From: Sulfolobales archaeon
GTDB lineage: Archaea; Thermoproteota; Thermoprotei_A; Sulfolobales; NBVN01
Length of the DNA stretch: 64,000 nt
NCBI GenBank assembly: GCA_026413885.1
Contig: JAOAKA010000001.1
Coordinates: 46,088 to 110,087 of the forward strand
Reading direction: 5' to 3'
Positions 994 to 45,194 of this stretch are shown piece by piece (position 1 is the first letter of the stretch; each line of letters starts with the position of its first letter). Both the position numbers and the translations under genes were made by a program. The notes below the pieces were generated by a model. It was given only the letters and a program-made list of their open reading frames with translations, did no database searches and was not told where the DNA came from.

Positions 994-1125
994 AGCTCTA
1001 CTGAGTAGGCTCTGGGCTTAGAATACCGCACAGTCTTCAGTGGAGTCCGGTTCATCATGGCTCAGATAGGATGCCTCTCCACATCTAGTAGCGTTTAACG
1101 TATTCACATATAGTTAGCTAACTCG

Positions 1126-1133
1126 ATTTAAAG
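1126..1133 (+). promoter_or_regulatory. TATA-box-like element (ATTTAAAG) for sua5
   Basis: The A/T box is centred about 29 nt upstream of ATG 1158. This spacing is typical of leaderless archaeal transcripts. Confidence 0.35.
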
Positions 1134-1157
1134 CTCTCTATACTACATCTCTCTGGG

Positions 1158-2243: not shown

Positions 2244-2288
2244 GCTTAAAGATCTCTGTAACTAAGCATACTACCTCACAAGTAAGCT

Positions 2289-2306
2289 ATTATATAACTA
2301 TATATT
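2289..2306 (+). promoter_or_regulatory. TATA-rich promoter region (ATTATATAACTATATATT)
   Basis: Two overlapping TATA-like boxes lie 24-33 nt upstream of ATG 2326. Confidence 0.3.
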
Positions 2307-2325
2307 GTTTCTGGACAACTTTAAC

Positions 2326-3576: not shown

Positions 3577-3934
3577 AATGCCGATAAAGAAGATTATAGC
3601 ACGCAGAGTGACTATTGAAGAAGGAGATTTAGTGCTAGATGGAAGCACTGAAGAAAGCAGGATTTCCTTGTCATCTATACGTAGATTCGGAGTTATGAAG
3701 AGATATAGTAGAGTATTGGTGGTTCTCACTATTGTTATAGCGGTTATCTCCATCTATACTCAAGACTTGTTTCATACGATTCTCACACTAGTAGCACTAG
3801 GGGTTACTCTAGCTACAAGAGAGGAAGTACTGGTTTTAGAGACTGCTAATGGAAGTATTTTAGAGATTAGTACTAGAGATAGAAAGTCTATCAAGAAAGC
3901 AGCTGAGGGTCTAAGCAAGTTACTTACTCACTAA
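3569..3934 (+). CDS. Hypothetical small membrane protein
   Basis: 121-aa ORF overlapping the amidohydrolase stop by 8 nt. It has one or two central hydrophobic helices (VLVVLTIVIAVISIY, ILTLVALGVTLA). Confidence 0.4.
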   Translation: MTEMPIKKIIARRVTIEEGDLVLDGSTEESRISLSSIRRFGVMKRYSRVLVVLTIVIAVISIYTQDLFHTILTLVALGVTLATREEVLVLETANGSILEISTRDRKSIKKAAEGLSKLLTH

Positions 3935-5069
3935 TAATTTCGACATTAGCTCTTGGAATCACTACTTCTCTTCCACTTTGTAAACGAACTTTAACAACTC
4001 TCACCGGAGATTCTGTCTCTATTTTATGTAGTTCTATAGGTAGTTCAGTAACTACACCTATTTCACCGAAGTATGGATATCTTATAATTCTAACAATACT
4101 GCCCGCCTTCATTTTACCCTCACCTAAAGACTCCGGTCTCGAGGTGGAGCCCTCCGTATCTAGTGGAATAATTACTTCAGGTCTTATTACACCAGCTCTA
4201 ACTTGTGTAGCTCCGTTGATTGCGGCTTCTCTACCCTCATTCTCCTCGAAGATCTCGAAAGCTCTTCTAGACATAGGAAGTCTTCCAAAACCTTCAGTGA
4301 GAACTATTGTAAATCCTATATTCTCCCTACCAGTAATAGCTACTCCTATTCTATAGCCTAAAATTCTCTCTAGGTCCGTTATTTTAGCACCTCCAACTAC
4401 AACGCCGGCAACACCTACTTTTCTAGCTTTCTCGAGTGCTTCATAGGTTATGAGAGACCCCCCAACGATTACTTTACCGGCGTGGTGCTCTCTTATATGT
4501 TCTAAATCTACGACATCTTGGTTGTTGGAGGAAACCATCTCTAGTACTCCGTGTTTTTCACCACCGAAGCCTATAATTCCTTGAATAAATGCTGCCGGTG
4601 TTCCTATAGCTACTGATTCTCCGTGAACGACTTTCAGAATTCTTCCTCTAACGTATGCCTTCAGCTCAATCTTACGTGGAGGACTTCTTATAGTTAAGTG
4701 GCCGGTAATTTCATTAAAACTCTCGACAGCGCCTTCAATAGGTGATTCAACAGACTTCTTAATGAGACCTAGAAGAGCTGAATAGCCGGCGAGTATAGTA
4801 CCCTTGGTAACTCTATCTCCTATCTTTACCTTGAGGTACCTAATTACTTCTTCAGGTTCTACCCCCAGAAGTTCCGCTACTTTAACTATATATGGAGGTC
4901 CCTCCAGAAAATATCTTCCAACTATTGTGTCGAAATCTACTTTCTCTCCCTGATCTACTAATATGTCTCCTTTGATAGGTAGAACTCTCTCACGTATAAC
5001 ATATGTGAGAGGGGTGACTGTTAGTCCAGGTGTGTACGCAAAGCTCTCCTCACTCATTTTAGCCACCAC
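3924..5069 (-). CDS. Hypothetical protein with lipoyl-like barrel-sandwich segments; last gene of the GlmL-like operon
   Basis: 381-aa ORF with an 11-nt overlap with the upstream gene. Segments IKGDILVDQGEKVDFDTIVGR and KIGDRVTKGTILAG resemble hybrid-barrel motifs. I recognise no catalytic motif. Confidence 0.6.
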   Translation of the reverse strand: MVAKMSEESFAYTPGLTVTPLTYVIRERVLPIKGDILVDQGEKVDFDTIVGRYFLEGPPYIVKVAELLGVEPEEVIRYLKVKIGDRVTKGTILAGYSALLGLIKKSVESPIEGAVESFNEITGHLTIRSPPRKIELKAYVRGRILKVVHGESVAIGTPAAFIQGIIGFGGEKHGVLEMVSSNNQDVVDLEHIREHHAGKVIVGGSLITYEALEKARKVGVAGVVVGGAKITDLERILGYRIGVAITGRENIGFTIVLTEGFGRLPMSRRAFEIFEENEGREAAINGATQVRAGVIRPEVIIPLDTEGSTSRPESLGEGKMKAGSIVRIIRYPYFGEIGVVTELPIELHKIETESPVRVVKVRLQSGREVVIPRANVEIISE

Positions 5070-6894
5070 CTACTCTATCGAGAAATTCTGCTGGGTATAG
5101 ATCTACGGCTTTAAACCACGAAGTCAACAACCTCTTTTTCTCTCTGTGGTCTTGTGGAATATAGAGAGGTCTACCTCTTCCATCTAATACTACACCGACA
5201 ACACCACCTTTAACTTTTTTTCTAACTCTCTTACCGAAGCCTAACCCGAAGTCAAATTTCTTGGTAGGTTGAATGAATACAACTACCTCCTTGTACTGAG
5301 GTATCTGAATACGTATTAGACTTCCGAAAGTTAGCTCTACATGCTCTCTCTCTTTCTCAGAATACTCTATAGTTACATCTGCTACTTTCTCACCGAGCGA
5401 GCCTATACCTGCCGCTGCTATGAGTGTGCCTAGAGGTATTAAACACTCTTTTTCAAATATTTCAAGAGCTATTTCTCTATGTATTTTAGAGAGTACTCCT
5501 AAGTGGGGTATCATGAACACACTATCCTGCATTATGTAGGTAAAGCCTATCGGCTGGAAAGCGTCTGTGAGTATAGTCATAGATTGAACTCTTCTAGGAG
5601 CTCTAGAGAGAAGACCTCCAGTACCTATAATATAGTCAACTCTCTTCATATCTATATAGGTTTCTTCAGCTTTTACTTCTTCAAATATATCTGAAATAGT
5701 TCTCTCCTTCTTAACTCCCTTGAGTTCTCTTGCTAAATACTTGTGGTGGTTGAAAGCCATTCTAATACTTTCTCTAGCTACAGCATGCTCGACAATAAGG
5801 TCTTCTAGAGACATAGGTATTGTTGTAGGTCTAATCATCTTATTGTAGATTATACCCATAATCTCGTCGTCGGTGAGGTCGAACGGGATCCATCTCTTGA
5901 TGTTCTCGAGAGTAGCCTCTCTCAATACGTTTCCGATGCTGTAACTCATCCCTAAGTTAGCACTCACAGTCCTCAAGAACCTTCCATCAAAGACGGAATA
6001 TACGTTTGTTGTAGCACCACCCATACCTACTCCAATTGCGTTTACTTCCTTCATCTCAGCAAAGGTCCTGATCATTAAGCCTTCAGCAGCCGGTGTCGGC
6101 ATTATATCTGTTGAAACTAGCTTCATCAGTTTTTCGTATCCAGGTGCGTGAGCCATCACATGCTCCATAAACAGCTCCAGTATAGCGTTTCTAGCTGATT
6201 CAACTTTCTCGACTTCTATCTGAGGTCTTATATTATCTACTATTCTTACATCGAAGAAGTCTTCAACTAGAATCTTCTTCACGTCGCTTCTAGCGTCTCT
6301 GTTTCCAGCATAGACTACTGGAAGTCTAAATGATGAACCAAATCTAGGTCTAGGTTTAGCTACAGCTATAACTTCACTCATTTCAAGTACGTGGGTTTTA
6401 TCGCCTCCATCTGTTCCTCCTGCGAGTAAAATCATGTCCGGTCTTAGAAATCTGAGTATATTAATCTTTTCGTGTACCTCTCTACCATCGTCAACCGATA
6501 GAACATCCATTACTATAGCTCCAGCACCTAGAGCAGCTCTTTGAGCACTCTCAGCTGTGATACTCTTAACTACCCCAGCTACAAGCATCTGAAGACCTCC
6601 ACCAGCACTACTCGTTGATACATAAACATCTATACCGACTTTCCCACCTAGATAGGGCATAATGAACTTCAATTCTTCTGTTGAGTCATCCAGTATGTCG
6701 TGTCCAGTGAGTTCCTCAACTTCTCTTACAGCATTTCTTACTCCCTTAGTAACGTCCTCAACTGGTTTTTCAACTGTTGTAGGTGCTTCACCACTAGCTA
6801 AGAACTTCCACTCACCATCTATCTTACCGAAGAAGCGAGCCTTAGTAGTAGTACTACCAACATCAGTCGCAAGGATAAACTTCGGTTCCCTCAT
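5059..6894 (-). CDS. GlmL/MutL-like ASKHA (actin-fold) ATPase with a C-terminal extension
   Basis: The N-terminal phosphate-1 motif ILATDVGSTTTKARFF and later GGTDGGD and IGTGGLL motifs are typical of the glutamate mutase component L family. It is 611 aa, longer than the classic roughly 460 aa. Confidence 0.55.
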   Translation of the reverse strand: MREPKFILATDVGSTTTKARFFGKIDGEWKFLASGEAPTTVEKPVEDVTKGVRNAVREVEELTGHDILDDSTEELKFIMPYLGGKVGIDVYVSTSSAGGGLQMLVAGVVKSITAESAQRAALGAGAIVMDVLSVDDGREVHEKINILRFLRPDMILLAGGTDGGDKTHVLEMSEVIAVAKPRPRFGSSFRLPVVYAGNRDARSDVKKILVEDFFDVRIVDNIRPQIEVEKVESARNAILELFMEHVMAHAPGYEKLMKLVSTDIMPTPAAEGLMIRTFAEMKEVNAIGVGMGGATTNVYSVFDGRFLRTVSANLGMSYSIGNVLREATLENIKRWIPFDLTDDEIMGIIYNKMIRPTTIPMSLEDLIVEHAVARESIRMAFNHHKYLARELKGVKKERTISDIFEEVKAEETYIDMKRVDYIIGTGGLLSRAPRRVQSMTILTDAFQPIGFTYIMQDSVFMIPHLGVLSKIHREIALEIFEKECLIPLGTLIAAAGIGSLGEKVADVTIEYSEKEREHVELTFGSLIRIQIPQYKEVVVFIQPTKKFDFGLGFGKRVRKKVKGGVVGVVLDGRGRPLYIPQDHREKKRLLTSWFKAVDLYPAEFLDRVGGG

Positions 6895-7003
6895 AATGGC
6901 TTACACCCACCACTCGTTAATACTGAAGTATGAGTTATATATTCATCAAATTGATATTAGGTGTTTATTCGCGTAATAGCTACATTGTGGTGATGCCGTA
7001 GGA

Positions 7004-7062
7004 GAAGTCAGTACTGCAGTGGTTCATCAGCTTCAGGCCGCCCGTCGTTCGCATCATCCCGC
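7004..7062 (-). ncRNA. Candidate C/D box sRNA
   Basis: Read on the minus strand: AUGAUGC (7057-7051), 14 nt, CUGA (7036-7033), AG, CUGAUGA (7030-7024), the 12-nt guide ACCACUGCAGUA, then CUGA (7011-7008). It is intergenic and on the same strand as the flanking genes. Confidence 0.4.
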
Positions 7063-7133
7063 ATGAAAAGATGTTGAAAACTAATATATTTACCTTCTCT
7101 AAAAACTAATTTTCTCCTGAAGATCTATCGGCT

Positions 7134-7394
7134 TTACTGACTATATTTCTCAATCTTACTTATTAGTTTCTCGATTTTTTCTGAGTCCTGAAGAACCATA
7201 AGGAAAAGCTCTCCGTGATTTCCAAGTAAGATTAAAAAAGGCTGTAAATATAGTCTCGCAAGCTGAGCCCACACTCGCCCCATGGGACCAAAAGAGTTGA
7301 GCAGAAAAATAGCTATTGTGTCCAATTTCGAATCGACTATCTTTTTCGCCAGTTTGTCTAGTAGTTCTTCTTCCTTACTTAGATTGCTTGACAT
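7134..7394 (-). CDS. Hypothetical 86-aa protein (operon member)
   Basis: The ORF starts 2 nt after the upstream gene stop. It has a charged N- and C-terminus around a hydrophobic core. Confidence 0.5.
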   Translation of the reverse strand: MSSNLSKEEELLDKLAKKIVDSKLDTIAIFLLNSFGPMGRVWAQLARLYLQPFLILLGNHGELFLMVLQDSEKIEKLISKIEKYSQ

Positions 7395-7396
7395 GG

Positions 7397-8125
7397 TTAC
7401 CTCTTTCTCAATATCCCTAAGATAATCGCAGCAGCAGTTAAGACTGCTGCTATAGCGGAAGCTAGAGCCTGCGGCTGTATATATATTAAATACACAGATA
7501 TTAGAAAGCCGACTCTAGTCATTATTGTGTTAGCAAATAGAGCTCCGAAGCCGACCATCATACCGTAAATGCCTATATAGTAAAGACCTCTGTAGACCAA
7601 ATACGTTAGCGAGGGTTTAACACCTTCAGCTTTCTTCGGGAATGTTGTGAAGATGAAGTAAGTTAGGCCTCCCAGAGTTATCAAAACTAGAATCCAGTTA
7701 TTAAGAGTTTTAACTGGGTCGGACCCCCAGAGAGGGACTATCGTAGCTGTAATCTGTCTAACTATGTTAGCTATAGGCACAGTTCTGAGAGCCAGTCCGG
7801 AGCCTACAGCAATATTTACAGCAACAGCATATCTAGCTAGCCAGTAATACTTCTTTGAATACTTAGTGAACATCAATACACCTAATATTGCTGGAATAAC
7901 ATAGTGCCACGAAGCAGACCAGAATGTGTGAGGACTTCTAACTGCTGGTGACACTAATACTCTGTTTAAGCTATCTAGAGCTAGTGCTATCGAATATCCA
8001 GCAGCGGTTCCAACAAACATATGTTCAGCTATCTTGTAGAACACGTTATCTCTATAGACAAAGCTATATATCCATACAACCATAGCAGCACAGAGCCACG
8101 CCCCAATTACATCCCAGCCTATCAC
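7397..8125 (-). CDS. Polytopic membrane protein, module B2
   Basis: 242 aa with about 6 predicted TM helices and a 4-nt overlap with the upstream gene. Its size and topology are similar to the 229-aa protein at 8975-9664. Confidence 0.7.
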   Translation of the reverse strand: MIGWDVIGAWLCAAMVVWIYSFVYRDNVFYKIAEHMFVGTAAGYSIALALDSLNRVLVSPAVRSPHTFWSASWHYVIPAILGVLMFTKYSKKYYWLARYAVAVNIAVGSGLALRTVPIANIVRQITATIVPLWGSDPVKTLNNWILVLITLGGLTYFIFTTFPKKAEGVKPSLTYLVYRGLYYIGIYGMMVGFGALFANTIMTRVGFLISVYLIYIQPQALASAIAAVLTAAAIILGILRKR

Positions 8126-8982
8126 TTCCCACCACCTCTTCTAGACGAGAGTCTCTTACCCCAGTAGAGAATGTTGCCGATGCCAATGAAGGCCACTATC
8201 AACATGTGAGATGTGCTCTGAGCATCCATAGACGCTATACCTAAGCCGAGCCTACCTACTAAAACCTCGTACTCCGCGGCACTTCTCTGTCCAACAAGCA
8301 TTCCAACAGCTTGCTTAGCACCAACAAACGGCTCTATAGATGGAGCTATAACGCTTAGAGCAGCAAATAGAAGAGGTACATTATATGGTGTGTGCCACTG
8401 CCTCACGTAGTAAGCAAATACATCTGTGCCAGAGGATGCTATGACGACTAAGTTGAAGTCTGTGGCTTTATCTACCTCCTTCATTAGCGGGAGGTCCTCT
8501 AATCTATTACCGAAGTTATCTACACTGATAGTTCCCTTGATGCTTCTCGCCAGAGAAGCTGCAGCAGCTTCACCACCAGCGATGTAGCCTAGGTAAACGT
8601 AGTCTCTACCATACACTTTATCTTCGAATAGGTCTGACGCCATAGACCTAAATAGAGAGAATGCTATAACTCCAAAAGCACTGAGAGATCCGTAGACTAT
8701 TTTACAGTTCTTATCGAATAGGTGTTTAGTTAGTGCTATGAGATTTGGTTCTAGTTCCCCTCTTGCCGCAACTTCGTAGTATACCTCTATATAGACATGA
8801 CACTCTTGACGCAGGTTTGTCTCTATGTAGCTATATACATCTCTAGTTCTTTTAGAAACCTCTATCGGTATTCCTAGAGGATGTATAATTGGTAAGATAA
8901 CTGAGAGTAGTAGTAGTGTATACAGGAGTTCTCTAGACCCAAGAATTTTCTCTATGTAGCTTACCCCACTCATACTACTCAC
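8122..8982 (-). CDS. Membrane-anchored protein with a soluble core, module A2
   Basis: 286 aa with an N-terminal TM, a roughly 200-aa soluble region and a C-terminal TM. It has an 8-nt overlap with the upstream gene. Segments align with the 298-aa protein at 9669-10565. Confidence 0.7.
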   Translation of the reverse strand: MSSMSGVSYIEKILGSRELLYTLLLLSVILPIIHPLGIPIEVSKRTRDVYSYIETNLRQECHVYIEVYYEVAARGELEPNLIALTKHLFDKNCKIVYGSLSAFGVIAFSLFRSMASDLFEDKVYGRDYVYLGYIAGGEAAAASLARSIKGTISVDNFGNRLEDLPLMKEVDKATDFNLVVIASSGTDVFAYYVRQWHTPYNVPLLFAALSVIAPSIEPFVGAKQAVGMLVGQRSAAEYEVLVGRLGLGIASMDAQSTSHMLIVAFIGIGNILYWGKRLSSRRGGGK

Positions 8983-9664
8983 GCCTCCCCATCCAGCTCG
9001 TCTCTCTCCATGTCAACAATCTCAGACCTAGTACTACAGTACCTAGTCCAGCACCTATAGTGATCGGTCTGAAAGCAGCTGTATTGGGAACAGTCATAAT
9101 CCAGTCTCTTAGAGGTAGAAAGCCGGGCCACACTACCCCGCCGATAGTAGTGTTTCCAAAGACCACTATCAGTGCTGTAACGAGGAGGAGTAACGCCATT
9201 GGATTTCTTACTCTAAAGGCTCTATATGAAGCAGATGCTATATAGAACACTAAGATAGAATATACTGCGGCATCTGCTGGTGCATAGAGGTTTAGATATA
9301 GCCATCTAAATTGAGGTTGTGTAGTTATAGCAATTCCAGCTGCTGGGTTACTGTAGCTGATATACCAGCCGATTAAAGCAAAGATAACCATAGTTACAAG
9401 CAATCCTATCGAAACTAAGCTAAAGGGCGCCTGCTTTAGACCTTCTTTTCTCACTTTTGTTAAGTGAAATCTTAGTATGTCGATGCCTCCAACAATAAGA
9501 GCGAAGCTCGTGATTATTACCGCCCAATCACTTAAAGCTTTATCAGCAGTACTAAATGCTCCAGCGACATCCCTATTGATGTAGAGATAGTAAAATGCTA
9601 TTGATAGTAGTATTATGATTGTCACAATAATCTGGGGAGTATATCTTCTAGCGACTAAACTCAT
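8975..9664 (-). CDS. Polytopic membrane protein, module B1
   Basis: 229 aa with about 5-6 TM helices. There is a 4-nt gap to the upstream gene. Confidence 0.7.
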   Translation of the reverse strand: MSLVARRYTPQIIVTIIILLSIAFYYLYINRDVAGAFSTADKALSDWAVIITSFALIVGGIDILRFHLTKVRKEGLKQAPFSLVSIGLLVTMVIFALIGWYISYSNPAAGIAITTQPQFRWLYLNLYAPADAAVYSILVFYIASASYRAFRVRNPMALLLLVTALIVVFGNTTIGGVVWPGFLPLRDWIMTVPNTAAFRPITIGAGLGTVVLGLRLLTWRETSWMGRRE

Positions 9665-9668
9665 AACC

Positions 9669-10565
9669 TCACCCTACTTTCCAGACCCAGTTGAGAATGT
9701 CTACAAACGTAAAGCCTTTGAGACCGGGTAAGAGTAATGCTAATATCCCCATAATTATTAATACTATCGCTAGAAACTTCCCGACATCCTGACCTCTTAT
9801 TGAAGCTAGAGTCTCCTTATCACCTGAAGCTAGAGCTCCTGCGGCAAATATTTCCTCACCTATGAAGGAGTAGTCAGCTACTAAAACGAAGAACGGAATT
9901 TGAGTCTCCCTAGCTGTTCCAGCTATCTGAAAAGCATTAACCATGTTACCAGCTTCCATAAATATGAGAGATTCCGCGTAGAAAGGACCTACAACGATAT
10001 TAGCTCCTACATTTTCTCTAAATATAGTTGCTTGAACAGCTGATGCGTAAGCAAACTGCTGGTCTGTTAGATATCTCACATTGTATGTTGTGTCGTAGAG
10101 CTCGGGTCTACCAGCTGAGTAGTAACCTTCTCTAACTATCTCCTCTGCTGTAGCTATAGCTTCCGGCACACCGAGAGTAGTGATTAGCTTAGCACCGTAT
10201 TTACCACATAATCTTGCGATATGTGATAATACACCTAGTCCAGCTATAAATTGAGGCGCCATTGCTGATGAAATTGTTCCAAAACCAAAAGTCATATGGA
10301 CTGGTCTACCCATTTCAACAGACCTAGCTACAGCTTCCTCGATAGCGTCAAATGCGCGTATCTTTCTCACTGGAAATAATTTACCACCTCTAGCCTCCAT
10401 CATGAAGATATAGCCTGCTGCTAATAGGACCACTAACATTATGAATGCCGAAAAAGGAGCTCTCGTGGTGTAGAGCTGAACGCGGAGAAACCAGCTCACA
10501 GCAGATACTACACCTATAGCCAGCAAGATAAGTGAAACTATTAATACGCTTCGGAAAGTCTTCAA
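9669..10565 (-). CDS. Membrane-anchored protein with a soluble core, module A1 (first gene of the operon)
   Basis: 298 aa with two N-terminal TM helices, a soluble core and a C-terminal TM (FLAIVLIIMGILALLL). An AT-rich promoter region lies upstream. Confidence 0.7.
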   Translation of the reverse strand: MKTFRSVLIVSLILLAIGVVSAVSWFLRVQLYTTRAPFSAFIMLVVLLAAGYIFMMEARGGKLFPVRKIRAFDAIEEAVARSVEMGRPVHMTFGFGTISSAMAPQFIAGLGVLSHIARLCGKYGAKLITTLGVPEAIATAEEIVREGYYSAGRPELYDTTYNVRYLTDQQFAYASAVQATIFRENVGANIVVGPFYAESLIFMEAGNMVNAFQIAGTARETQIPFFVLVADYSFIGEEIFAAGALASGDKETLASIRGQDVGKFLAIVLIIMGILALLLPGLKGFTFVDILNWVWKVG

Positions 10566-10755
10566 TTACTACACCTCAACATTAGAATAGAGGTATAGAT
10601 TAAAAAAGCTTAAAGTAACTAGTACGACTTAAACTCGATAATGTAACTTACTTCTATAAATTAAAATTTCAAAGATTAATAAAAAGGATATTAAAGTAAG
10701 CTCAAGTCACATAAAACGGAAGACGCTACTGACAGTATAAAACTGAAACACTAGT

Positions 10756-10782
10756 AAGTCATAGGCATTCAATCTATGACTT
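10756..10782. repeat. 9-bp perfect inverted repeat (AAGTCATAG, 9 nt spacer, CTATGACTT)
   Basis: Read directly from the sequence. It lies in the 333-nt divergent intergenic region between the membrane operon and the gene at 10899. Confidence 0.5.
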
Positions 10783-10873
10783 TATTTAATTTGTGTGTCA
10801 AGTATTCTCAAACACATTATTACCTAGTTTCACTAGTTTCACTTAAGTTTCGCGGGAGTTCGTATAAGCTAGT

Positions 10874-10881
10874 GTATATAG
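10874..10881 (+). promoter_or_regulatory. TATA-box-like element (GTATATAG)
   Basis: About 21 nt upstream of ATG 10899. Confidence 0.3.
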
Positions 10882-10898
10882 TGTTATTCGGGGAAACT

Positions 10899-11333
10899 AT
10901 GAATAGTAGGTTGCTAGCTATACTGGCGGTAGGAATAGCTTTAGCCGTAGTGCTAGCTAGTAGTGCTGTATTAGTATATGCTAAATCAGCTGAAGGTGAG
11001 AGAGGAATTCAGCGCGGTATAGCTGCTGGTCTAAATATAAGGCATAGATTGGGTCCACGTATAGAAGTTAGTGAGGAGTATAAGAAAAAGGTTATCGATA
11101 TAGCTACGAAAGACTCAGATGTAGCTAAGCTTCTAGAAGAAGGATATAACATAACAGCTGTTAGACCGATAATCAAGTTGTATGTAGGAGGAGACGGCAC
11201 GGTCACATTGAGAGCAGATGAAGCTGTAGTAGTCTTACGTAAGAATAGAAATATAGCACTAGTTCTAGTTAACGTAAGAGAGGAGAGAGTAACTAAAATC
11301 TTAATTCGAAATATAACTGTTATAGAAAAATAG
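10899..11333 (+). CDS. Hypothetical secreted or membrane-anchored protein
   Basis: Starting from the internal ATG, the N-terminus MNSRLLAILAVGIALAVVLASSAVLVYA looks like a signal peptide or anchor. The upstream 41 codons of the tracked ORF look non-coding. Confidence 0.55.
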   Translation: MNSRLLAILAVGIALAVVLASSAVLVYAKSAEGERGIQRGIAAGLNIRHRLGPRIEVSEEYKKKVIDIATKDSDVAKLLEEGYNITAVRPIIKLYVGGDGTVTLRADEAVVVLRKNRNIALVLVNVREERVTKILIRNITVIEK

Positions 11334-11365
11334 AAACCAGAGATCGACTTACGTAAGTTCAAAAG

Positions 11366-11371
11366 TTTTTT
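11366..11371 (+). terminator. Oligo-T tract (TTTTTT)
   Basis: T-run about 30 nt after the stop at 11333. Archaeal terminators are typically T-tracts. Confidence 0.3.
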
Positions 11372-11445
11372 CAATTCAATTAAACACTAAAATCGGTAAT
11401 CTTAGTAGTAATTATTATTACCTAGTCTAAGATATGTAGCTAGGT

Positions 11446-12339
11446 ATGTATGTAATTAGACCATTCGACCCGTGGCGCTCACCTATGTGTACCTGCCCTA
11501 AAAAGTATGTTCTACATCCCTATACTGGCTGCGGACACGGGTGTCTCTACTGCTACGCTAGTAGCTACATACGCAACTTCTTCGACCCCAGACCTAAAAA
11601 AGCCCTTAAAGATTATCTCGTCAAAGACCTCGAGAAACTCCCGCCGGGTGCTATCATAGAGATGTCTACTAGTAGTGACCCATATACACCTCCTGAAGCC
11701 GATTTAAAGATTGCGAGAGAAGCTATTAGAGAGATCTTAAAGAGAGGCTTTAAACTACTTATAACTACTAAGAGCTCTCTAGTTCTCAGAGATCTAGACT
11801 TACTAGCTAGGTTCAGAGATAGAGTGGTTGTCGCAATAACAATTACAACACTAGATAACCGCGTAGCTTCACTACTAGAGCCGGGAGCACCACCTCCAGA
11901 GGTGAGACTTAGAGTTGTTAATGCGCTCAGTAGGTCTGGGATACCGACACTAGTTAGACTAGACCCTATAGTGCCTTATGTGAACGATGACTACACCTCT
12001 ATAGCTAAACTAGTGGAGGGAGCATCACTCGCAGGTGCTTTTCAAATTACTAGCTCTACATATAAAGCAAGAGCAGATAGCTTGAAGAGATTGGTGGAAG
12101 CCTTTCCACAAGTATATACTGAGATAGTGGAAGCCTATAGAGCTGGTGAGAAAATCTGTGGGTATACCTATCTGAGGAGAGATAAACGGCTAGAGTATAT
12201 GAAGATAGTTAGAGAACTCGCACTAAGAGCTGGAGTGGCCTTCAATACATGTAGAGAGAGATTTCCAGAACTAGCGAGTAGAGGATTTAATTGTGATGGT
12301 TCGTCACTCATAGGAAGAAGCTCTGTCACTGAGGTTTAG
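11446..12339 (+). CDS. Radical SAM protein (SplB/COG1533-like)
   Basis: CxxxCxxC motif in YTGCGHGCLYCYA near the N-terminus, and about 300 aa. Confidence 0.8.
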   Translation: MYVIRPFDPWRSPMCTCPKKYVLHPYTGCGHGCLYCYASSYIRNFFDPRPKKALKDYLVKDLEKLPPGAIIEMSTSSDPYTPPEADLKIAREAIREILKRGFKLLITTKSSLVLRDLDLLARFRDRVVVAITITTLDNRVASLLEPGAPPPEVRLRVVNALSRSGIPTLVRLDPIVPYVNDDYTSIAKLVEGASLAGAFQITSSTYKARADSLKRLVEAFPQVYTEIVEAYRAGEKICGYTYLRRDKRLEYMKIVRELALRAGVAFNTCRERFPELASRGFNCDGSSLIGRSSVTEV

Positions 12340-12846
12340 AGCTGCTCTATATTCTTTACTGAGAGATGTTAGTCTTTCAACTATCTCCGGATTCTTTTCT
12401 AAAACCTCGTTTACGATACTTAAATATCTGGCAACTCTTACTGCGTGTGGAGATATTCTAACTAACTGCTTACCATTAACTACAACGAAGTGTTCTTTAT
12501 CGATTTTCTCACCTACTATGTACTCTGCTTCATTAGCACTTGCGTGAAGCATGAAGCAGTGGGGACTACCATCTATCGTAGCTATAGTGATTCTCCTAGG
12601 TCTCGAAGACCTAATTATACTCGCTATTTTACCGTAGTGTGTTGGATTCTCACGCTCAGGACAGGCTAGCAGCACTGTTCTACCGCTTGATAGCTGTTTA
12701 AATAGCTCTGGATTAACTACCGGTAGGCAGGCTGAAGCTATAAGGAGGTCTGAATTAGCTAGTATAGGTGCTTTAACCCAGGTACTCCAGAGCCAGGAGC
12801 ACTCACCGCAATCCATACTACCACACCAGTTTAGCTCCTTCTCCAT
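12304..12846 (-). CDS. Hypothetical Cys-rich protein downstream of thiC
   Basis: N-terminal CGSMDCGEC plus three further Cys residues. The tracked start overlaps the thiC end by 29 nt. An alternative ATG at 12816 lies 1 nt after the thiC stop. Confidence 0.55.
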
Positions 12847-14158
12847 ATCTATCGAGTACCTCCTCCGGCTTTAACTTTCTCTCGCTTAAGTACTTCGATA
12901 GCATGAGAAACACACAGTACTGCCCACACATAGTGCATGAACTCAGTTCCTGTGGAAACTTGGTCTTCAGTTTAAGTGATCTCTCTGGGTCATAGGACTT
13001 CGAGACCTGGTACTCCCAGTCTAGTTGAGCCCTCTTAATACTCATCTCGACATCTCTATAAGCAGCTCTTCTCCCTAGCTTAACTAAGTCTCCTGCGTGA
13101 GCAGCTACTTTAGCCGCTATTAAACCCTCCTTAACTTCTTCGGCTCCCGGAAGACCTAGATGCTCTGAAGGTGTTAAATAACATATTAGGTCGGCACCAG
13201 CGGCTGCTGCTACCGCAGCACCTATAGCTGAAGCTATGTGGTCGTATCCTATAGCTATATCTGTTACTAGAGGTCCGAGAACATAGTACGGTACACCACC
13301 ACTGAGAGATTTCATCAGTCTAACGTCAGCTACAACTTTATCTAGAGTCATGTGTCCAGGACCCTCGATCATGACTTGAACCCCTCTGTCGACAGCATCT
13401 CTAGCCAGTCTCGAGTTATTCACTAACTCCCCTATCTGTAGTTCATCGTGTGCGTCTGCGGTAGCTCCAGGTCTGAGAGCATCACCCAGACTTATGACTG
13501 CGTCATATTCTCTGAATACCTCTAGTAGGTAGTCCCAATGCTTGAGGTAGGGGTTTTCCTCACTATTCTCGATCATCCAGATAGCTAGCATACTGCCGCC
13601 TCTACTAACTATTGGAGCAATTCTCCCACTCTTAACAGACTTTATAGCTAGTTCTCTAGTGATTCCAGCGTGAATGGTCATGAAGTCAACGCCGTCTCTC
13701 AAATGCTTCTCTACTACAGCTATAAACCATTCTGAGGGAATACCTACACCTCCATACTTTCTAACACCTTCGATCCAGGCTTGATATGTAGGAACGGTTC
13801 CAAAGGGAGTCCCCTCGGAAGCCTCCATAAGCCTTACTCTAACCTCACTCAGATCTCCTCCAGTGCTCAAGTCCATCAAGGTGTCTGCTCCAAATTTCAC
13901 AGCTACTCTAACCTTCTCTACCTCCATATCTAGATTCACAGCGGTACCGCTAGTTCCAACATTTACATTTACCTTAGTACTCAATCCTTCTCCAACAGCT
14001 ACAGGCCTTACTTTAGCTCTCCTACTGTTTCTTACAACAACTACTCTACCGGAGCTAACTCTTCTTCTCAAAACATCGTAGTCTATACCCTCAATTTTCG
14101 CGATAATTGCTAGTTCGTCTATAGTGCTACTACTTCTAGACTCAGCTATTACTCCCAA
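12818..14158 (-). CDS. thiC: Phosphomethylpyrimidine synthase ThiC
   Basis: Motifs [15 protein letters not shown] and [16 protein letters not shown], plus the C-terminal cluster motif CTMCGQYC. Confidence 0.92.
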
Positions 14159-32848: not shown

Positions 32849-33565
32849 TTGAAGGAGATATTACTCAGTAGAGAAGTAGAGTCAGCTGAATTAGCCGAAC
32901 TAATCGCTAAGTGGTTTAAGAGAGCGACTATAGTCGTTATCGCGAAATGCTCAATCGAGTACAGTGGGAGAGCTTCAAGTACAGCTAGAGAAGCTGTAAG
33001 ACTCATATTGATTAAACAAGATGGAACTATCTTAATTCATGAGTCTTCAGGTCGAGAACCGCTTAACTGGCAACCTAAAGCAACTGTATCTGTAAAACAG
33101 CTCGACAACCAAGAAGTAGAGATTATAGCAGTGCGAAGAACTCCAGATGAAAAACTCACCGTGAGAATTCGGGGAAGAGCTCTCACAACCGTGGCTGTGC
33201 TCGGTGATGTAGGTTTAACTCTCTGCGGTAGAGAGGAAGACTTAATTGAAGAAATTGCGAGAAACCCTTCATCAGTAGTTAGAGATGCTACTCTCATAGC
33301 TCGCGAAGTCAATACACCATATGGAAGAGTAGACATCATGCTGAAAGATAGCTCGGGAAAACTAATAGTAGTTGAAGTCAAGAGGTCTCAAGCAAGCATA
33401 GAAGCAGCTCAGCAGCTACATCGATATGTAGAGTACTATAGACGCCTCGGATTAGAGGTGGAGGGTGTACTAATAGCACTAGATGTAAGTGGTCAAGCCC
33501 TTAAGTACTTAAGAGACCATGGATTAAAGTACTTGAAATATTCTGCGAAGCCTCTATCTAGCTAG
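32849..33565 (+). CDS. nucS: Endonuclease NucS (EndoMS)
   Basis: The C-terminal PD-(D/E)XK core is GRVDIMLKDSSGKLIVVEVKR...QLHRYVEYY. It is 238 aa. TTG start with GGGGAG 6-11 nt upstream. Confidence 0.85.
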   Translation: MKEILLSREVESAELAELIAKWFKRATIVVIAKCSIEYSGRASSTAREAVRLILIKQDGTILIHESSGREPLNWQPKATVSVKQLDNQEVEIIAVRRTPDEKLTVRIRGRALTTVAVLGDVGLTLCGREEDLIEEIARNPSSVVRDATLIAREVNTPYGRVDIMLKDSSGKLIVVEVKRSQASIEAAQQLHRYVEYYRRLGLEVEGVLIALDVSGQALKYLRDHGLKYLKYSAKPLSS

Positions 33566-36380: not shown

Positions 36381-37067
36381 GTGCTCGACTTGGAGCTCGT
36401 AGCCTATATAGACTTAGATGGTACTCTAGCTGTAAGCCCCATATCCGGCATCATTGAAGAAGCATATAGGCAGATATCTCTTCGAGCAGGTCGTGAATTA
36501 GGGGAGGTAAAGCTCCTCTCTTGGAGAATACACGTAGAACTCATTAAGAAGTCTAGCCCGCTGGCTTTCGACTGGGACTACATATATGAAGAAGTTTCGA
36601 AAATACTTCAAATCAGTCCTAGTTCTAGGATAGATAGAAGACTCGAAGAACTCTGCGAATTTTCGAAGGTCTTAGACGATGCTTACAGAGTTCTAGATAG
36701 GCTTAGATCTACCGCTGGAGTTCTCGTTCTGGCTACTAATGGTTTACTTAAATATCAGAAGTGTGTTATAGAGTTTCTCGGTCTAGATAGATACTTCGAC
36801 TTAGTGCTCACTCCAGATGTCGCAGGTTGTCTTAAGAACTGTAGTAAGTTTTACTCGCTACCGAGCACTAGCAGCAGAAAGGTAGTAATAGGTGATAACT
36901 ATACTTTCGATGTCTACTACCCCAAGACATTTGGATTAAAGACTGTGTATGTGGATAGGTCTACTATAGATCCTTACGTTAAGTGGCTTGGAATTGAGAG
37001 AATAATTGAACCTGACACAGTAATCAATAGCTTGGAGCAGCTGCCGAATGTTATATCGAGACTCTAA
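36381..37067 (+). CDS. HAD superfamily hydrolase
   Basis: Motif I YIDLDGTL, motif II VLATNG and motif IV IGDNYTFDV. GTG start. Confidence 0.7.
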   Translation: MLDLELVAYIDLDGTLAVSPISGIIEEAYRQISLRAGRELGEVKLLSWRIHVELIKKSSPLAFDWDYIYEEVSKILQISPSSRIDRRLEELCEFSKVLDDAYRVLDRLRSTAGVLVLATNGLLKYQKCVIEFLGLDRYFDLVLTPDVAGCLKNCSKFYSLPSTSSRKVVIGDNYTFDVYYPKTFGLKTVYVDRSTIDPYVKWLGIERIIEPDTVINSLEQLPNVISRL

Positions 37068-37785
37068 AATCTAAGCACATAGGTACGTCTGGATTGTCTA
37101 GATATATATCTCCATTGACATCCATGTAGGTCGAGACGCTCTTTACTTTAACTCCTTTCTCAACTGCTTCAGCTATTAACCGGGGCACTACTCTATCTCC
37201 CTCACTATTTGGTTTAAAACACGTAACTGAACACATAGCCGATATAAAGACTAGATAGGTGAGTAGACCTTCAGATGCCAGCTTCGTGAGCAATCTAATA
37301 TGTCTTCTACCTCTCTCGGTTTCACAATCGGGATACATAGCCTCACCTCTAGACCCCCTCATGACAGCACTCTTAATCTCTACGAAAACCTCTCTTGAAT
37401 TACACCTTAGAACGTAATCTAACCTACTTCTGCTCACTAATGGATTTCGCTTTACTATTCTACATCCATTAAAGTAGGGAATTAGATCTAGCTCTACCGA
37501 CTTCTCGAAGACTCTAGATTGAGTGACTATATCTACGATGTAGAAGCAGCTCGGAGAGCTATCTTCAACACCGATCAGTCTGTACTTCAGCCTACTCTCT
37601 ATAGGTGTGAGAATAACTCTTCTGCCCGGGATCAGTAAGTCGAGAAGTCTACCAGTATTAGTATTGTGAGCTAAGACTAACTCACCACTAAGTCTCACGC
37701 GAACAATGAATCTACCAGCTCTCTCAACTAGTGTTCCAATGTATATTGGGTCGAGCCTAAGAACTCTGTGAAGCACTAGAAGCAC
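37051..37785 (-). CDS. sfsA: SfsA family protein (OB fold plus PD-(D/E)XK nuclease-like domain)
   Basis: LVERAGRFIVRVRLSGELVLAHNTNTGRLLDLLIPG and the later VEIKS core, with the typical length of about 240 aa. Confidence 0.85.
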   Translation of the reverse strand: MLLVLHRVLRLDPIYIGTLVERAGRFIVRVRLSGELVLAHNTNTGRLLDLLIPGRRVILTPIESRLKYRLIGVEDSSPSCFYIVDIVTQSRVFEKSVELDLIPYFNGCRIVKRNPLVSRSRLDYVLRCNSREVFVEIKSAVMRGSRGEAMYPDCETERGRRHIRLLTKLASEGLLTYLVFISAMCSVTCFKPNSEGDRVVPRLIAEAVEKGVKVKSVSTYMDVNGDIYLDNPDVPMCLDFRVSI

Positions 37786-37805
37786 CTCAAGCGATGGTCT
37801 TTCTA

Positions 37806-38435
37806 CTATATCTCGATTTTATAGGGACACATCACTGAAAATATACAGTACGAACACTCCCAGCTATACCTAGGAGCTTTCTTCGAGGTAACTCTACTTA
37901 CTACCTCGCTATCATCCATTCTATCCTCGATGTAGAATTGTGTAACTCTAGCTGGTGTTACGTACAGCAATATAGAGCCACTTAAATCCATTAACCAGTT
38001 ATATGCTCTAACTTGATCGACGTGGTGTTTCTGAGGTATGTTCTTATCCGATCGAGAACTCTTAATCTCAACAGCCACCCTCTCGAAGTCTCTCACCAGA
38101 AGCATATCGAGCCTACCTCTAATTGAAACTGCCGAACCGTCGTCGAGAATGACATCTCTACTCCCCTCGACTTCAGTCTCAACCGAGTATTCTCTAACTA
38201 ATTCTCTCAGTAAGTTCTCTAAACCACGGTGTACTAGCGTGCCAATTATCAGACTAGGTTTAAATATTTCTTGAAGCACCAAGTCTGGATAGCGGTCTTC
38301 ATAAACTCTCTTTAGCGGACATCTAACTAAGTCTGTAACCCAGATAACTCCCTTCTCCCTCTCGTACCTATCTCTCTCAGCTCTAATGAAGGAGTATATA
38401 AGACTTATAAGATCGACTACATTACTTGAAGACAT
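37806..38435 (-). CDS. Cas4-family PD-(D/E)XK nuclease with a 4-Cys cluster (stand-alone)
   Basis: N-terminal Cys in VTDLVRCPL, GRLDML...VAVEIKSSR (D...ExK), DQVRAY (QxxxY) and the C-terminal CSYCIFSVMC (CxxCx5C). Confidence 0.8.
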   Translation of the reverse strand: MSSSNVVDLISLIYSFIRAERDRYEREKGVIWVTDLVRCPLKRVYEDRYPDLVLQEIFKPSLIIGTLVHRGLENLLRELVREYSVETEVEGSRDVILDDGSAVSIRGRLDMLLVRDFERVAVEIKSSRSDKNIPQKHHVDQVRAYNWLMDLSGSILLYVTPARVTQFYIEDRMDDSEVVSRVTSKKAPRYSWECSYCIFSVMCPYKIEI

Positions 38436-38441
38436 AGCGTC

Positions 38442-39626
38442 CTACCTAGTTTTTATGTAAACTAATAAATCTGCTTCACTACTCACATCACTATTCACAA
38501 AACTCTCGATTTTACTGAGTCCGAGAACTGAGTAGGGAGATAAGCCCTTCATAAACTCCTCTACCTTCAACACCCTACCTCTGAGACCTATGTATCTAGC
38601 CGGTTTCTCAGTTCTTATCTTAACCTTAACTAGCTGAAGACCTGGGCGCACGGCGATAGCTCTCCCACTACTTAAGAGTATTTTAGATAGAGTGTTAAAC
38701 TCTCTCTTCACACCGAGCAGCTCAGCCATGAAGTCGATAGCTGAAGCAGCTCTATCAAGATAAGCATCTCTTTCATTTCTCACTCTTAGATATCTTAAAT
38801 GACGTAGTGCTCCAAATTCATGTAATTTGTAGACTAGGTCTACTGCTGACAAGATTAAGTCACCTGGAGTGCCCGCGGAGTGTGACAGTAGTGAATAGTT
38901 ACTATCTTCACACTGTACCTGCTCTCTGATATCTATTCTAAACTTACGCATGGCTTCCAGACTTTCACCTCCAACAAGCTTTTCGAGAGCAAAGCGAGGA
39001 ATTCCTCTAAGAGTTTGAATAAGAAATGTGTGTGAGCTATAGAGAGGCAGTATTCTACGTGAAGCTACGTAGAAGCCTCGGAGAGTGTTGAAGACCTTAA
39101 GAGGATTGCCGGTTAAAGTAGTGTAGTCTCTACTAGTCATAGCTCTGAGAGTCTCACTGCTTATCTCTAAGCCAGTAGCTACTCTGAGGGATTCTCTCAA
39201 CACTTTATCAAGCACTCCGAGAGTATTTAACCATTCGACCTCGTTGAAGGAGAGTCTCGCATGCACGGAGACTTGAGTTAGTGGGATCCCCATTGAAACT
39301 TTCTCTACTAGGTCTCGGCAACCTAGACACTCTACGCCTAAGAAATCTCTAAAGCAATTCTGCACATCTCTACTGTGACCGACAGTGTCTCTCCCAATAA
39401 CTCCCGCAACTACCTTTAGAGTTAGTGTGGATGAAGAAGTATTCTTAAGTAGCTCTACTAGACCTAGAATTCTAGAAGCTCTAATAGCTACTTGAACTAC
39501 GTCTGAATTGAAGAATTTCTTCCAGTCTTCGTAGTATAACTTCATAGCTCCCTTCTTGAGATCAACTCTCTCCACTACTCCCAACACCCTATCTACAGCT
39601 ACTCTAAGTTCGAAATTATATGTCAA
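38442..39626 (-). CDS. Hypothetical 394-aa helical protein (first gene of the Cas4-like/SfsA string)
   Basis: Long ORF ending 6 nt before the Cas4-like gene. I recognise no motif. It has four Cys residues (NCF, ECLGC, QCE). Confidence 0.6.
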   Translation of the reverse strand: MTYNFELRVAVDRVLGVVERVDLKKGAMKLYYEDWKKFFNSDVVQVAIRASRILGLVELLKNTSSSTLTLKVVAGVIGRDTVGHSRDVQNCFRDFLGVECLGCRDLVEKVSMGIPLTQVSVHARLSFNEVEWLNTLGVLDKVLRESLRVATGLEISSETLRAMTSRDYTTLTGNPLKVFNTLRGFYVASRRILPLYSSHTFLIQTLRGIPRFALEKLVGGESLEAMRKFRIDIREQVQCEDSNYSLLSHSAGTPGDLILSAVDLVYKLHEFGALRHLRYLRVRNERDAYLDRAASAIDFMAELLGVKREFNTLSKILLSSGRAIAVRPGLQLVKVKIRTEKPARYIGLRGRVLKVEEFMKGLSPYSVLGLSKIESFVNSDVSSEADLLVYIKTR

Positions 39627-39698: not shown

Positions 39699-39783
39699 GC
39701 CGCCGTAGCTCAGCCCGGGAGAGCACCCGGCTGAAGGTCTTTGGGAGACCGGGGTGTCGGGGGTTCAAATCCCCCCGGCGGCA
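39699..39783 (+). tRNA. tRNA-Phe (anticodon GAA) with an intron of about 11 nt at 37/38
   Basis: GCCGCCGTAGCTCAGCCCGGGAGAGCA-CCCGG-CTGAAG[GTCTTTGGGAG]A-CCGGG-GTGTC-GGGGGTTCAAATCCCCC-CGGCGGC-A. No CCA is encoded. Confidence 0.85.
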
Positions 39784-40369
39784 CTCTAATACACAGAATC
39801 TCAATTCTACTTAAGCGACCGACATTTACGAATCCCTCTGGACACATAGGTTCTCCATCGCTACACATAATTGTTAGAACAACCTCCTCAGCGAAGTCGA
39901 GGTCAACTCTACTTAAGACTGCTTGAATATCTCCATATCTGCATGTGTAGAGAGTGAATGAATAGATGTGAGTGAACCTAGACTTCTCTCTAAGTGGTGG
40001 ATGTCCTACATCAGCAGCTATAACTTCAACAAGTCCTGATCTGCCGTATGTAGATCTGAGTTTTCTCAGAGATCTGGAGCTTATGTCTATTCCTATGTAG
40101 AGCTCGGGAGAGGCACGGAATTTCTTCACGAGAAAACCGTAGAGAAGACCTATACCACACCCTATATCTAGAATCTTCCCACCTTGTCTAGCTCTGACGG
40201 CTACCGAATATTTTGCTATCTGCTCACTACCATAAAGTTCTCTGTAGGATCTGGATAGAGAGTCGTAGTAATTCATAGCTAAATATCTTACGACATCTGA
40301 AGTGTACTCACAGGATCTGGTTGAGAAACTCTCTACACCTTCACGGATTTCGTACATGGAGACACACAC
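39710..40369 (-). CDS. Class I SAM-dependent methyltransferase
   Basis: Motif I KILDIGCGIGLL and post-I IGIDIS. The last 25 or so codons are antisense to tRNA-Phe. Confidence 0.75.
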   Translation of the reverse strand: MCVSMYEIREGVESFSTRSCEYTSDVVRYLAMNYYDSLSRSYRELYGSEQIAKYSVAVRARQGGKILDIGCGIGLLYGFLVKKFRASPELYIGIDISSRSLRKLRSTYGRSGLVEVIAADVGHPPLREKSRFTHIYSFTLYTCRYGDIQAVLSRVDLDFAEEVVLTIMCSDGEPMCPEGFVNVGRLSRIEILCIRVPPGGFEPPTPRSPKDLQPGALPG

Positions 40370-44960: not shown

Positions 44961-45035
44961 GGCTCCGGTAGCTCAGCGGGGTAGAGCGCGGGGCTGTGGA
45001 CCCCGAGGTCCCGGGTTCAAGTCCCGGCCGGAGCC
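44961..45035 (+). tRNA. tRNA-His (anticodon GTG) with genomically encoded G-1
   Basis: G-GCTCCGGTAGCTCAGCGGGGTAGAGCGCGGGGCTGTGGACCCCGAGGTCCCGGGTTCAAGTCCCGGCCGGAGC-C. G-1 lies opposite C73. Confidence 0.9.
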
Positions 45036-45194
45036 CTACTGAATTCTTCTCCGTACTTTCTAAGTCTTACTTAATGCTTGCCGCAGACATATTTTATTAG
45101 TTTAGTAGGGCTTCCGAGAATCTGCTTAAATTTTCTCCAAGATGTTTACTGTAAGACTCACCCAACCGAGCAGCAGCTACCATCTGGAGGTAGT

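Follow-up and report, generated by a model that had tools for sequence, protein, structure and literature searches.

A window of 64,000 nucleotides (nt) from a Sulfolobales archaeon (contig JAOAKA010000001.1 of assembly GCA_026413885.1, positions 46,088 to 110,087) was analysed around a string of three minus-strand genes, which encode a protein of 394 amino acids (aa), a stand-alone Cas4-family nuclease (solo-Cas4) of 209 aa and an SfsA protein of 244 aa (Table 1). The window here means this whole stretch. The genome that holds it amounts to 1.32 Mb in 23 contigs and is 89% complete, and near-identical DNA is present in six DNA sequencing runs, all of them hot-spring metagenomes, from four studies; three of these runs may be the source, and no RNA run with such a sequence was found. 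An earlier sequence-only reading had reported that the three genes are separated by 6 nt and 20 nt, and both gaps were reproduced in the list of open reading frames (ORFs). The same reading proposed that the two nuclease-fold proteins and the 394-aa protein could form a module for DNA repair, end processing or defence. The findings described below indicate that the trio is probably a lineage-specific juxtaposition and not a conserved three-gene system. They also show that the 394-aa protein belongs to a small family, designated family A, whose genes outside the genus of the window are usually followed by a gene of a second family, designated family B, the two being closely coupled.

Table 1. 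Coordinates of the three-gene string and of neighbouring features in the 64-kb window
Feature	Position in window	Strand	Size and start	Annotation or source
Family A ORF	38442..39626	-	394 aa, TTG start	ORF list
Solo-Cas4	37806..38435	-	209 aa	ORF list; PD-(D/E)XK/RecB-type nuclease, four Fe-S cysteines
SfsA	37051..37785	-	244 aa	PF17746 + PF03749; OB domain + PD-(D/E)XK-like nuclease domain
tRNA with intron	39699..39784	+	86 nt	ARAGORN, Rfam; divergent from and just upstream of family A
Class I S-adenosylmethionine (SAM) methyltransferase	39710..40369	-		Methyltransf_25/11 (Pfam)
HAD-type hydrolase	36381..37067	+		PF00702; weak HAD and nucleotidase NCBIfam matches
NucS/EndoMS-type endonuclease	32849-33565	+		NucS_N + NucS_C

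The 209-aa gene is the solo-Cas4 of the order, a vertically inherited ortholog of SSO0001. In a phmmer search of Protein Data Bank (PDB) sequences, its residues 23-207 were aligned with residues 20-205 of 4ic1_A (E 3.7e-44, 153.9 bits); PDB 4IC1 is SSO0001 of S. solfataricus (PMC5704561). The Pfam model PDDEXK_1 was matched at 34.1 bits (cutoff 22) and the PADLOC Cas4 models were matched as well. The score against the NCBIfam model TIGR00372 (cas4) was 54.9 bits, under the curated cutoff of 65. As we read it, TIGR00372 is built around CRISPR-associated Cas4, and the shortfall lowers the claim of a CRISPR-type Cas4, not the claim of membership in the Cas4 family. Across 20 orthologs, C39, C194, C197, C203, D110, E123, K125, Q141 and Y145 were invariant. 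By our own reading, which the alignment to 4IC1 supports, D110 is motif II, E123-x-K125 is motif III and Q141/Y145 is the Q-x3-Y of a RecB-type nuclease. The Fe-S cysteine pattern is complete, with one N-terminal (C39) and three C-terminal (C194, C197 and C203) residues. The invariance of these motifs and cysteines bears out the earlier description of a complete Cas4-type nuclease with RecB motifs and four cysteines. Of the 121 genomes of the order, 88 had a match to the window's Cas4 at E≤1e-10, nearly always a single one, and these genomes represent 41 of the 53 genera.

The string lacks the context of a CRISPR-associated Cas4, as neither cas1/cas2 nor an array adjoins it. TRF returned 0 rows for tandem or CRISPR-like arrays in the window, and the sole Cas1 match of the genome was located on another contig (C17, 88855-89685), where it adjoins a second Cas4 of CRISPR type (Pfam Cas_Cas4, C17:90148-90651); the statement that the window holds neither CRISPR repeats nor other cas genes was upheld by these results. 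The gene of Sso0001 is likewise not near CRISPR loci, and the protein is described as a Mg-dependent 5'->3' exonuclease of single-stranded DNA with a 4Fe-4S cluster (approximately 4 Fe per protein) and an oligomer of approximately 175 kDa (PMC3466216). Solo-cas4 genes are described as mainly inherited vertically, with purifying selection about as strong as for the median gene of the genome, and their function as uncharacterised (PMC5704561). Compared with SSO0001/4IC1, the window's Cas4 keeps D110, E123-x-K125, Q141/Y145 and the four Fe-S cysteines, and it too does not lie beside cas genes. In contrast, it stands directly behind a family A gene, an arrangement of one genus only, while the protein itself is ordinary. 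For the window's protein, the exonuclease activity and bound Fe-S cluster known for SSO0001 are putative.

The 244-aa gene is an ordinary SfsA with nothing new about it. Both Pfam domains were found, PF17746 (SfsA_N) at 50.1 bits and PF03749 (SfsA) at 110.4 bits, and the score against TIGR00230 (155.5 bits) was above its cutoff of 126.45, in agreement with the identity first given to it, an OB fold plus a PD-(D/E)XK-like fold. Within the order, 98 of 121 genomes had SfsA, and 45 of the 53 genera were represented among them. The gene shares with the SfsA family (TIGR00230; E. coli 4DAP) its two domains, its score above the cutoff and its single-copy state, and is unremarkable except for the adjacency of Cas4 in 7/10 genomes of the genus.

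The synteny of the trio was confined to the genus. Family A was followed by Cas4 in 10/10 loci of the genus, with gaps of 2-25 nt, and SfsA came after Cas4 in seven of these; in L006 and L007 the gene after Cas4 was a homolog of the window's 159-aa ORF, and no SfsA was seen at the locus in L008. Outside the genus, neither SfsA nor family A was found at any of 29 Cas4-ortholog loci, for which the neighbourhoods covered ±1.5 kb only. Hardly any homolog of an ORF from the 64-kb window occurred at these 29 loci, and the neighbours of Cas4 varied by genus among assorted housekeeping genes (MFS transporter, uracil phosphoribosyltransferase, GNAT, glycosyltransferase, ThiD-like kinase and others). 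Likewise, neither this Cas4 nor SfsA was found at any of 28 family A loci outside the genus, where ±7 kb were covered. When Cas4 and SfsA occurred on one contig elsewhere, the nearest were approximately 7-17 kb apart (G444, G012, G037 and G013), and in complete genomes the distance was usually hundreds of kb. In other genera, Cas4 and SfsA are near-universal and unlinked. Because the adjacency fails outside the genus, an outcome which the sequence-only reading had itself named as telling against its proposal, the trio does not appear to be a conserved module of any of the proposed kinds.

Full-length homologs of the 394-aa protein were found in 10/10 genomes of the genus at 39-61% identity; the frame was open in nine of them and interrupted by one TAG in the other. 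No family A protein was found in 15 genomes from other genera of the same taxonomic family, and it was found in 1 of 16 genomes from the rest of the sampled order. In a word-indexed search, 11 clusters were recovered including the window's own, and the other 10 were 41-61% identical and all unnamed or 'hypothetical'; the close homologs came from records titled 'Sulfolobales archaeon'. When a profile of 15 sequences was searched against 1.84 billion representatives, 64 proteins were matched at E≤1e-3 and 19 at E≤1e-10, mostly of 360-430 aa. For 10 clusters names were looked up, and every name given was 'hypothetical protein'; these belonged to metagenome-assembled genomes (MAGs) of Ignisphaera, Desulfurococcaceae and Sulfolobales. 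With a 32-sequence profile, to which the window's protein gave a full-length match at E 2.2e-116, family A was detected in 29 of the 401 genomes sampled across the phylum (21 of 162 genera), and several genomes had 2-4 matches, some of them in tandem (G367 and G239). A tblastn search with the family member of L059 (Sulfolobaceae) found no match among 72,556 records of plasmids and 50,697 of phages. Family A is thus an unnamed, small and patchy family restricted to Thermoproteota. No mention of family A or family B was met in the literature on Sulfolobus SSO0001 and solo-Cas4, and no claim of absence from print is made on that ground.

The window's family A protein had 0 matches in Pfam, NCBIfam, PADLOC and PHROGs, so that it remains the unknown protein that it was first called, and it did not map to any known housekeeping family, since no named family was found. 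Among 48 family A matches scanned against Pfam, 44 had no match and four had matches only below the curated cutoff (E≥0.0013). An AlphaFold2 (AF2) model built from a 15-sequence alignment had a mean predicted local distance difference test (pLDDT) score of 89.1 and a predicted template modelling (pTM) score of 0.88. The model was mostly helical, in keeping with the earlier description of a helical protein, with the addition of a C-terminal alpha/beta part. The sole disordered part of the model was residues 1-19 of the 394-aa ORF (pLDDT <50), relatives align to the ORF from approximately residue 18-28, and the ESM Atlas record begins at residue 18. Because of the low-pLDDT N-terminus, the homolog alignment and the start of the Atlas record, the true start is likely to be GTG 39575 (377 aa) or ATG 39545 (367 aa). 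A/T-rich, TATA-like stretches approximately 45 nt upstream of GTG 39575 were noticed by eye, an unscored impression.

The fold of family A is confidently predicted and has no convincing match among solved structures or in BFVD. Foldseek, which had been put forward earlier as a way to identify the 394-aa protein, was run against the PDB and left the fold without a match at E≤0.001, and the same threshold gave no match in BFVD. The best VIA-align score over 48,161 chains (Z 6.2) was to Dps/ferritin four-helix bundles and was set aside as uninformative, being generic for helical models. ESM Atlas clusters of the Helicase_dom4_arc/Sec63 type (0.79-0.85) did not rise above the level of a lead and, with no Hel308-type VIA match, were not adopted. 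Residues ~300-394 matched the winged-helix domains of CodY, CRP-like and MarR-like regulators at Z ~5, and this predicted C-terminal winged-helix-like domain may bind nucleic acid. When 32 diverse members were aligned, only two glycines were invariant and the Walker A pattern was found in 0/32; conserved residues of a catalytic type are thus lacking across the wide family, and family A is probably non-catalytic. A conserved block specific to the window's clade consists of K71, G75, G78, T81, G83 and C100-x-x-C103; the C100-x-x-C103 motif and the 'GVIGRDTVGHSRD' block were limited to the window's close clade.

Outside the genus, a family B gene of 534-840 aa was located directly 3' of family A on the same strand at 18 of 28 family A loci. 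The gaps from A to B, taken from longest-ORF starts, were -62 to +19 nt in 17 of the 18 pairs, and a 208-aa ORF lay between A and B in L067. The B proteins are mutually homologous. A profile search with family B recovered 87 clusters, and every name given was 'hypothetical protein', from Acidilobus, Thermoproteus, Vulcanisaeta and Thermoprotei records. PADLOC-DB v2 (2023, mostly bacterial) contained no model that matched 13 family A proteins (the window's and 12 others) or 17 family B proteins. There was no PHROGs match for either family at E≤0.001, the sole weak match being one B protein at E 0.0086. These results show that outside the genus A and B are commonly paired as two closely coupled genes, with A the first of the two.

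The invariant residues of B (numbered as in the L045 protein) were all found in the C-terminal ~150 aa: E444, S445, H448, K452, E473 and D482. After D482, most members have 'E-V-E-T-L-Y-G' and three have 'D-V/A-K-T'. The AF2 model of B was disordered over residues 1-224 and mostly confident over residues 225-590. With VIA-align, residues ~447-571 matched 2okf at Z 7.5 (root-mean-square deviation 2.9 A over 113 aa), 1y88 at 6.3, Can2/Card1 at 6.1-6.3, BstEII at 6.0, McrC and YaeQ at 5.9, and PaqCI and E. coli SfsA (4dap) at 5.5; at least 10 different PD-(D/E)XK structures matched at Z 5.5-7.5. Foldseek gave a probability of 1.00 for B against 2okf. The independent model of B in the ESM Atlas had TM scores of 0.53-0.63 to clusters of CoiA_nuc, Mrr_cat, NERD and SfsA, and of 0.76-0.81 to hypothetical clusters of approximately 560-590 aa from Thermoproteota and Methanobacteriota. 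The best structural matches, 2OKF and 1Y88 (XisH/FdxN-excision-factor-like and AF1548-like), differ from B in that identity was 12-16% with no sequence-profile link, and B has two extra regions. From the models and the conserved residues, the C-terminal domain of B is likely to be a PD-(D/E)XK domain, although this is unproven. Several results count against this assignment: the call rests on Z values below 8 plus a reading of the motif, no Pfam, PADLOC or NCBIfam match to B was found at the thresholds used, and an hhalign comparison of B with Cas4 fell short of significance (E 0.058 and probability 0.9% over 28 columns). That insignificant alignment places D482 and E-V-E of B on D110 and E-x-K of Cas4. 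The B profile against PDB sequences gave a chance match only (E 0.3).

The middle region of B (residues ~225-400) resembled AAA+, clamp-loader and STAND folds at VIA-align Z 6-6.7, and the best Foldseek match was 2gno, the delta'-like TM0771 (E 7e-4). The Walker A pattern ([AG]x4GK[ST]) was found in 0/18 B proteins, and because it is missing an NTP-driven action of the McrB kind is unlikely. Short B-like proteins were seen a few kb from family A at two loci: one of 247 aa with the nuclease-like domain only (L052, 18-761, plus strand), and one of 406 aa without the disordered N-terminus (L064, 3342-4562, minus strand). In L064, the family A gene itself is split into pieces of 107 aa and 185 aa.

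The neighbours of the A+B pairs were classified by Pfam and PADLOC scans. A prokaryotic Argonaute (pAgo) and a TmtA-like GHKL protein flank the pair in L069; Csx1 and PIN are beside it in L059, NERD in L050, GIY-YIG in L060, a DNA methylase and HEPN in L067, and an archaeal integrase fragment in L047. AbiEi-type winged-helix proteins occur in L052 and L054, together with a NurA-domain protein in L052, and ATPase_2 proteins occur in L045, L053 and L056, with an MCM_C winged helix in the latter two. In total, 11 of 18 A+B loci had at least one neighbour of defence or mobile-element type and 7 of 18 had none, counts that stand without a control, so the defence context of A+B is only suggestive. 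The part of the earlier proposal that gave the unknown protein a nuclease partner was retained in a changed form: its family does have a recurrent partner of nuclease-like fold, often among defence-type genes, but that partner is family B and not Cas4 or SfsA.

Some family A loci showed arrangements of their own. In L069 (G027:C1:656400-671100), a compact island of four genes at ~3979-13138 consists of the pAgo (821 aa, opposite strand, PADLOC E 2.5e-50), A (475 aa), B (609 aa) and the TmtA-like GHKL/NOV_C protein (958 aa, PADLOC TmtA E 5e-51). In L053 (G367:C11:1-14000), three tandem A paralogs of 459, 303 and 334 aa at 1032-7032 on the minus strand are followed by an enlarged B of 840 aa, with the ATPase_2/MCM_C winged-helix protein close by; this looks like a locally amplified A+B pair. 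Three loci from genomes of taxonomic family f2 (L062, L066 and L068) form a separate long-branch clade of solo A, and in 3/3 of them an ABC_ATPase (PF09818/PF20446) gene lay no more than two genes from A, with the two transcribed divergently or convergently. A gene for a metallo-beta-lactamase-fold protein adjoins A in L062 and L066. The proximity of the ABC_ATPase may be a second, different association of family A.

A maximum-likelihood tree was made from 35 family A proteins (rows of at least 300 aa, with fragments excluded). The B-linked copies of different taxonomic families were intermixed with high support. The nine copies of the genus formed one clade (97/89), whose sisters were two solo copies from another taxonomic family (99/94), and the stem of this combined group had a length of 1.89 substitutions per site (100/100). 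The two sister genomes, G027 and G302, each also hold a separate A+B pair. In G027, the solo A is at ~336 kb and Cas4 at ~1143 kb, approximately 800 kb apart. No homolog of B was found among the window's ORFs, in the genome of the window or in any of the 10 genomes of the genus; the same query recovered B in 5/5 known carrier genomes. These findings show that the window's A is in a divergent clade without B, and that A+B is patchy, sometimes multi-copy and has a tree that disagrees with taxonomy.

The surroundings of the string in the window are composed of housekeeping genes by Pfam: NucS, a SpoU methylase, DUF655, an Rpb4-like subunit, ribosomal protein L21e, the HAD hydrolase, the class I methyltransferase and a wyosine radical-SAM enzyme. 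G+C content was flat, approximately 0.41-0.43, across the region of the string. The HAD hydrolase is convergent on SfsA, with 17 nt shared by the two 3' ends, and marks the downstream end of the string. The NucS/EndoMS protein, 3.5 kb from the string, is a third protein of PD-(D/E)XK fold there, which accounts for a weak Cas_Cas4 Pfam match in the window. A 'CTATAAAAT' stretch at 37814-37822 on the minus strand, within the 3' end of Cas4 and approximately 30 nt upstream of the SfsA GTG, could by eye and unscored be an internal archaeal TATA box that gives SfsA a transcript of its own.

Upstream of family A, ARAGORN gave the intron-bearing tRNA an odd 4-base anticodon and Rfam scored it as a tRNA at 57.5 bits; judged by its sequence it appears to be a tRNA-Phe (GAA) whose anticodon loop is followed by a short intron. 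The final ~25 codons of the methyltransferase ORF run antisense through this tRNA gene. The same layout, a tRNA at the 3' end of the methyltransferase and upstream of A, was seen at five other loci of the genus. The methyltransferase, which is a neighbour and belongs to no module, was syntenic upstream in 7/10 loci of the genus when the window's own copy (L001) is counted. In L004 (G001:C4), a tRNA-His at 1006-1082 takes the place of the intron-bearing tRNA and the methyltransferase upstream of A. The window's own tRNA-His is at 44962-45036, approximately 5 kb away. This indicates a local rearrangement in L004 with a breakpoint just upstream of A.

The reading of the locus that we favour begins with the pair and not with the trio. 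A+B would be a mobile nuclease module of defence type (or of mobile-element type), in which B would act as the nuclease effector and A as its non-catalytic partner, possibly a sensor, adaptor or regulator. The window's A would then represent a long-branch clade that followed the loss of B, an exapted or relict 'solo A', which in this one genus landed directly upstream of solo-Cas4. Because the linkage is tight (6 nt), A and Cas4 are probably co-transcribed, and this does not imply that they cooperate.

There are points that weigh against this reading. The A-Cas4 gap of 2-25 nt has survived in all ten genomes even though A falls to 39% identity, and an adjacency kept in this way is what a functional operon would look like too. 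The Cas4 neighbourhoods outside the genus reach only a short distance, as given above. The genomes of the genus are MAGs of 79-97% completeness, so that B was 'not found' in them and this is not proof of its loss. Furthermore, B probably shares with Cas4 and SfsA the fold of one nuclease superfamily, and a swap of partners is conceivable. According to this alternative, A lost B and is now co-transcribed with solo-Cas4, and perhaps SfsA, as a unit for DNA-end processing or defence, in which A would recruit or gate the Cas4 toroid. The constant A-Cas4 adjacency in genomes whose A proteins are only 39-61% identical, the probable PD-(D/E)XK-fold domain of the usual partner, the failure to find B in 10/10 genomes with a query that worked in its controls, and the conserved block peculiar to the clade together with its long stem, which suggest a changed function, all speak for it. 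However, the sister solo-A copies in G027 and G302 are not beside Cas4, Cas4 is kept in 88/121 genomes of the order, of which very few have A, and SfsA is missing from the string in 3/10 loci of the genus. The neighbourhood is also collinear across the genus, so that the adjacency may be plain inheritance; with the surrounding genes collinear as well, it counts as one evolutionary event. Taken together, we regard the swap as unlikely. A fuller version, in which A exchanged B for solo-Cas4 and serves as an adaptor or gate that loads the exonuclease ring on particular DNA ends while A+B is a two-gene archaeal immune system with a sensor of novel fold, is to be viewed as rather improbable.

Similarly doubtful is a role outside defence, in which A, with or without B, would serve the maintenance of the cell or of a mobile element, for example as an accessory of replication, partition or integration; the window's A would in that case be what remains of such a gene after domestication, serving in regulation or structure, and would stand beside nucleases by chance. 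Such a role would fit the patchy, multi-copy distribution and the tree at odds with taxonomy, the integrase fragment, PaREP1 and ATPase_2/MCM_C winged-helix proteins that adjoin some copies, the tRNA genes directly upstream of A in 7/10 loci of the genus and the lack of any PADLOC model for A or B. It is opposed by the empty tblastn search of the plasmid and phage records, by the lack of a PHROGs match at E≤0.001, and by the window locus itself, which showed neither an intact integrase nor an att-like structure. In addition, the solo-A loci L044, L046 and the window sit among metabolic and translation genes. Lastly, that the 394-aa ORF is a chance open frame and no real gene, for which its TTG start and the lack of a database family might be cited, is refuted by conservation and has next to no probability, given full-length homologs throughout the genus with nine of ten frames open, 64 profile matches and a well-scored model from only 15 sequences.

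Two-gene defence modules with a PD-(D/E)XK effector and an accessory subunit are a common design. A+B resembles McrBC in being a coupled two-gene unit, in the probable PD-(D/E)XK fold (McrC Z 5.9) and the AAA+-like domain of B, and in lying often beside known defence genes. In contrast to McrBC, A+B is without a PADLOC, Pfam or NCBIfam model, B is without Walker A, the fold of A is unmatched in the PDB, and the window's A is without B altogether. The kind of system suggested is a familiar one, in which two coupled genes that include a PD-(D/E)XK effector occupy variable parts of the genome, and the function of A+B is unproven. Families A and B are without a model in any of the four profile libraries searched, and Cas4 and SfsA bring nothing new.

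The biochemistry of solo-Cas4 has been known since 2012-2013. If the partner swap were true, archaeal solo-Cas4 would have in A its first dedicated protein partner, and a conserved operon partner would make the role of solo-Cas4 testable; because the apparent partner is confined to one genus, this lead is weak, and there is a small chance that solo-Cas4 has a natural partner in this genus. The catalogue of archaeal defence systems is poor. A+B brings together unnamed families of hyperthermophilic Thermoproteota, in which B would combine a Walker-A-less ('dead') AAA+-like domain with a PD-(D/E)XK domain, and in several genomes the pair is near pAgo, Csx1, AbiEi, NERD and HEPN genes. These findings make A+B a candidate two-gene defence pair that can be tested with Sulfolobales genetics.

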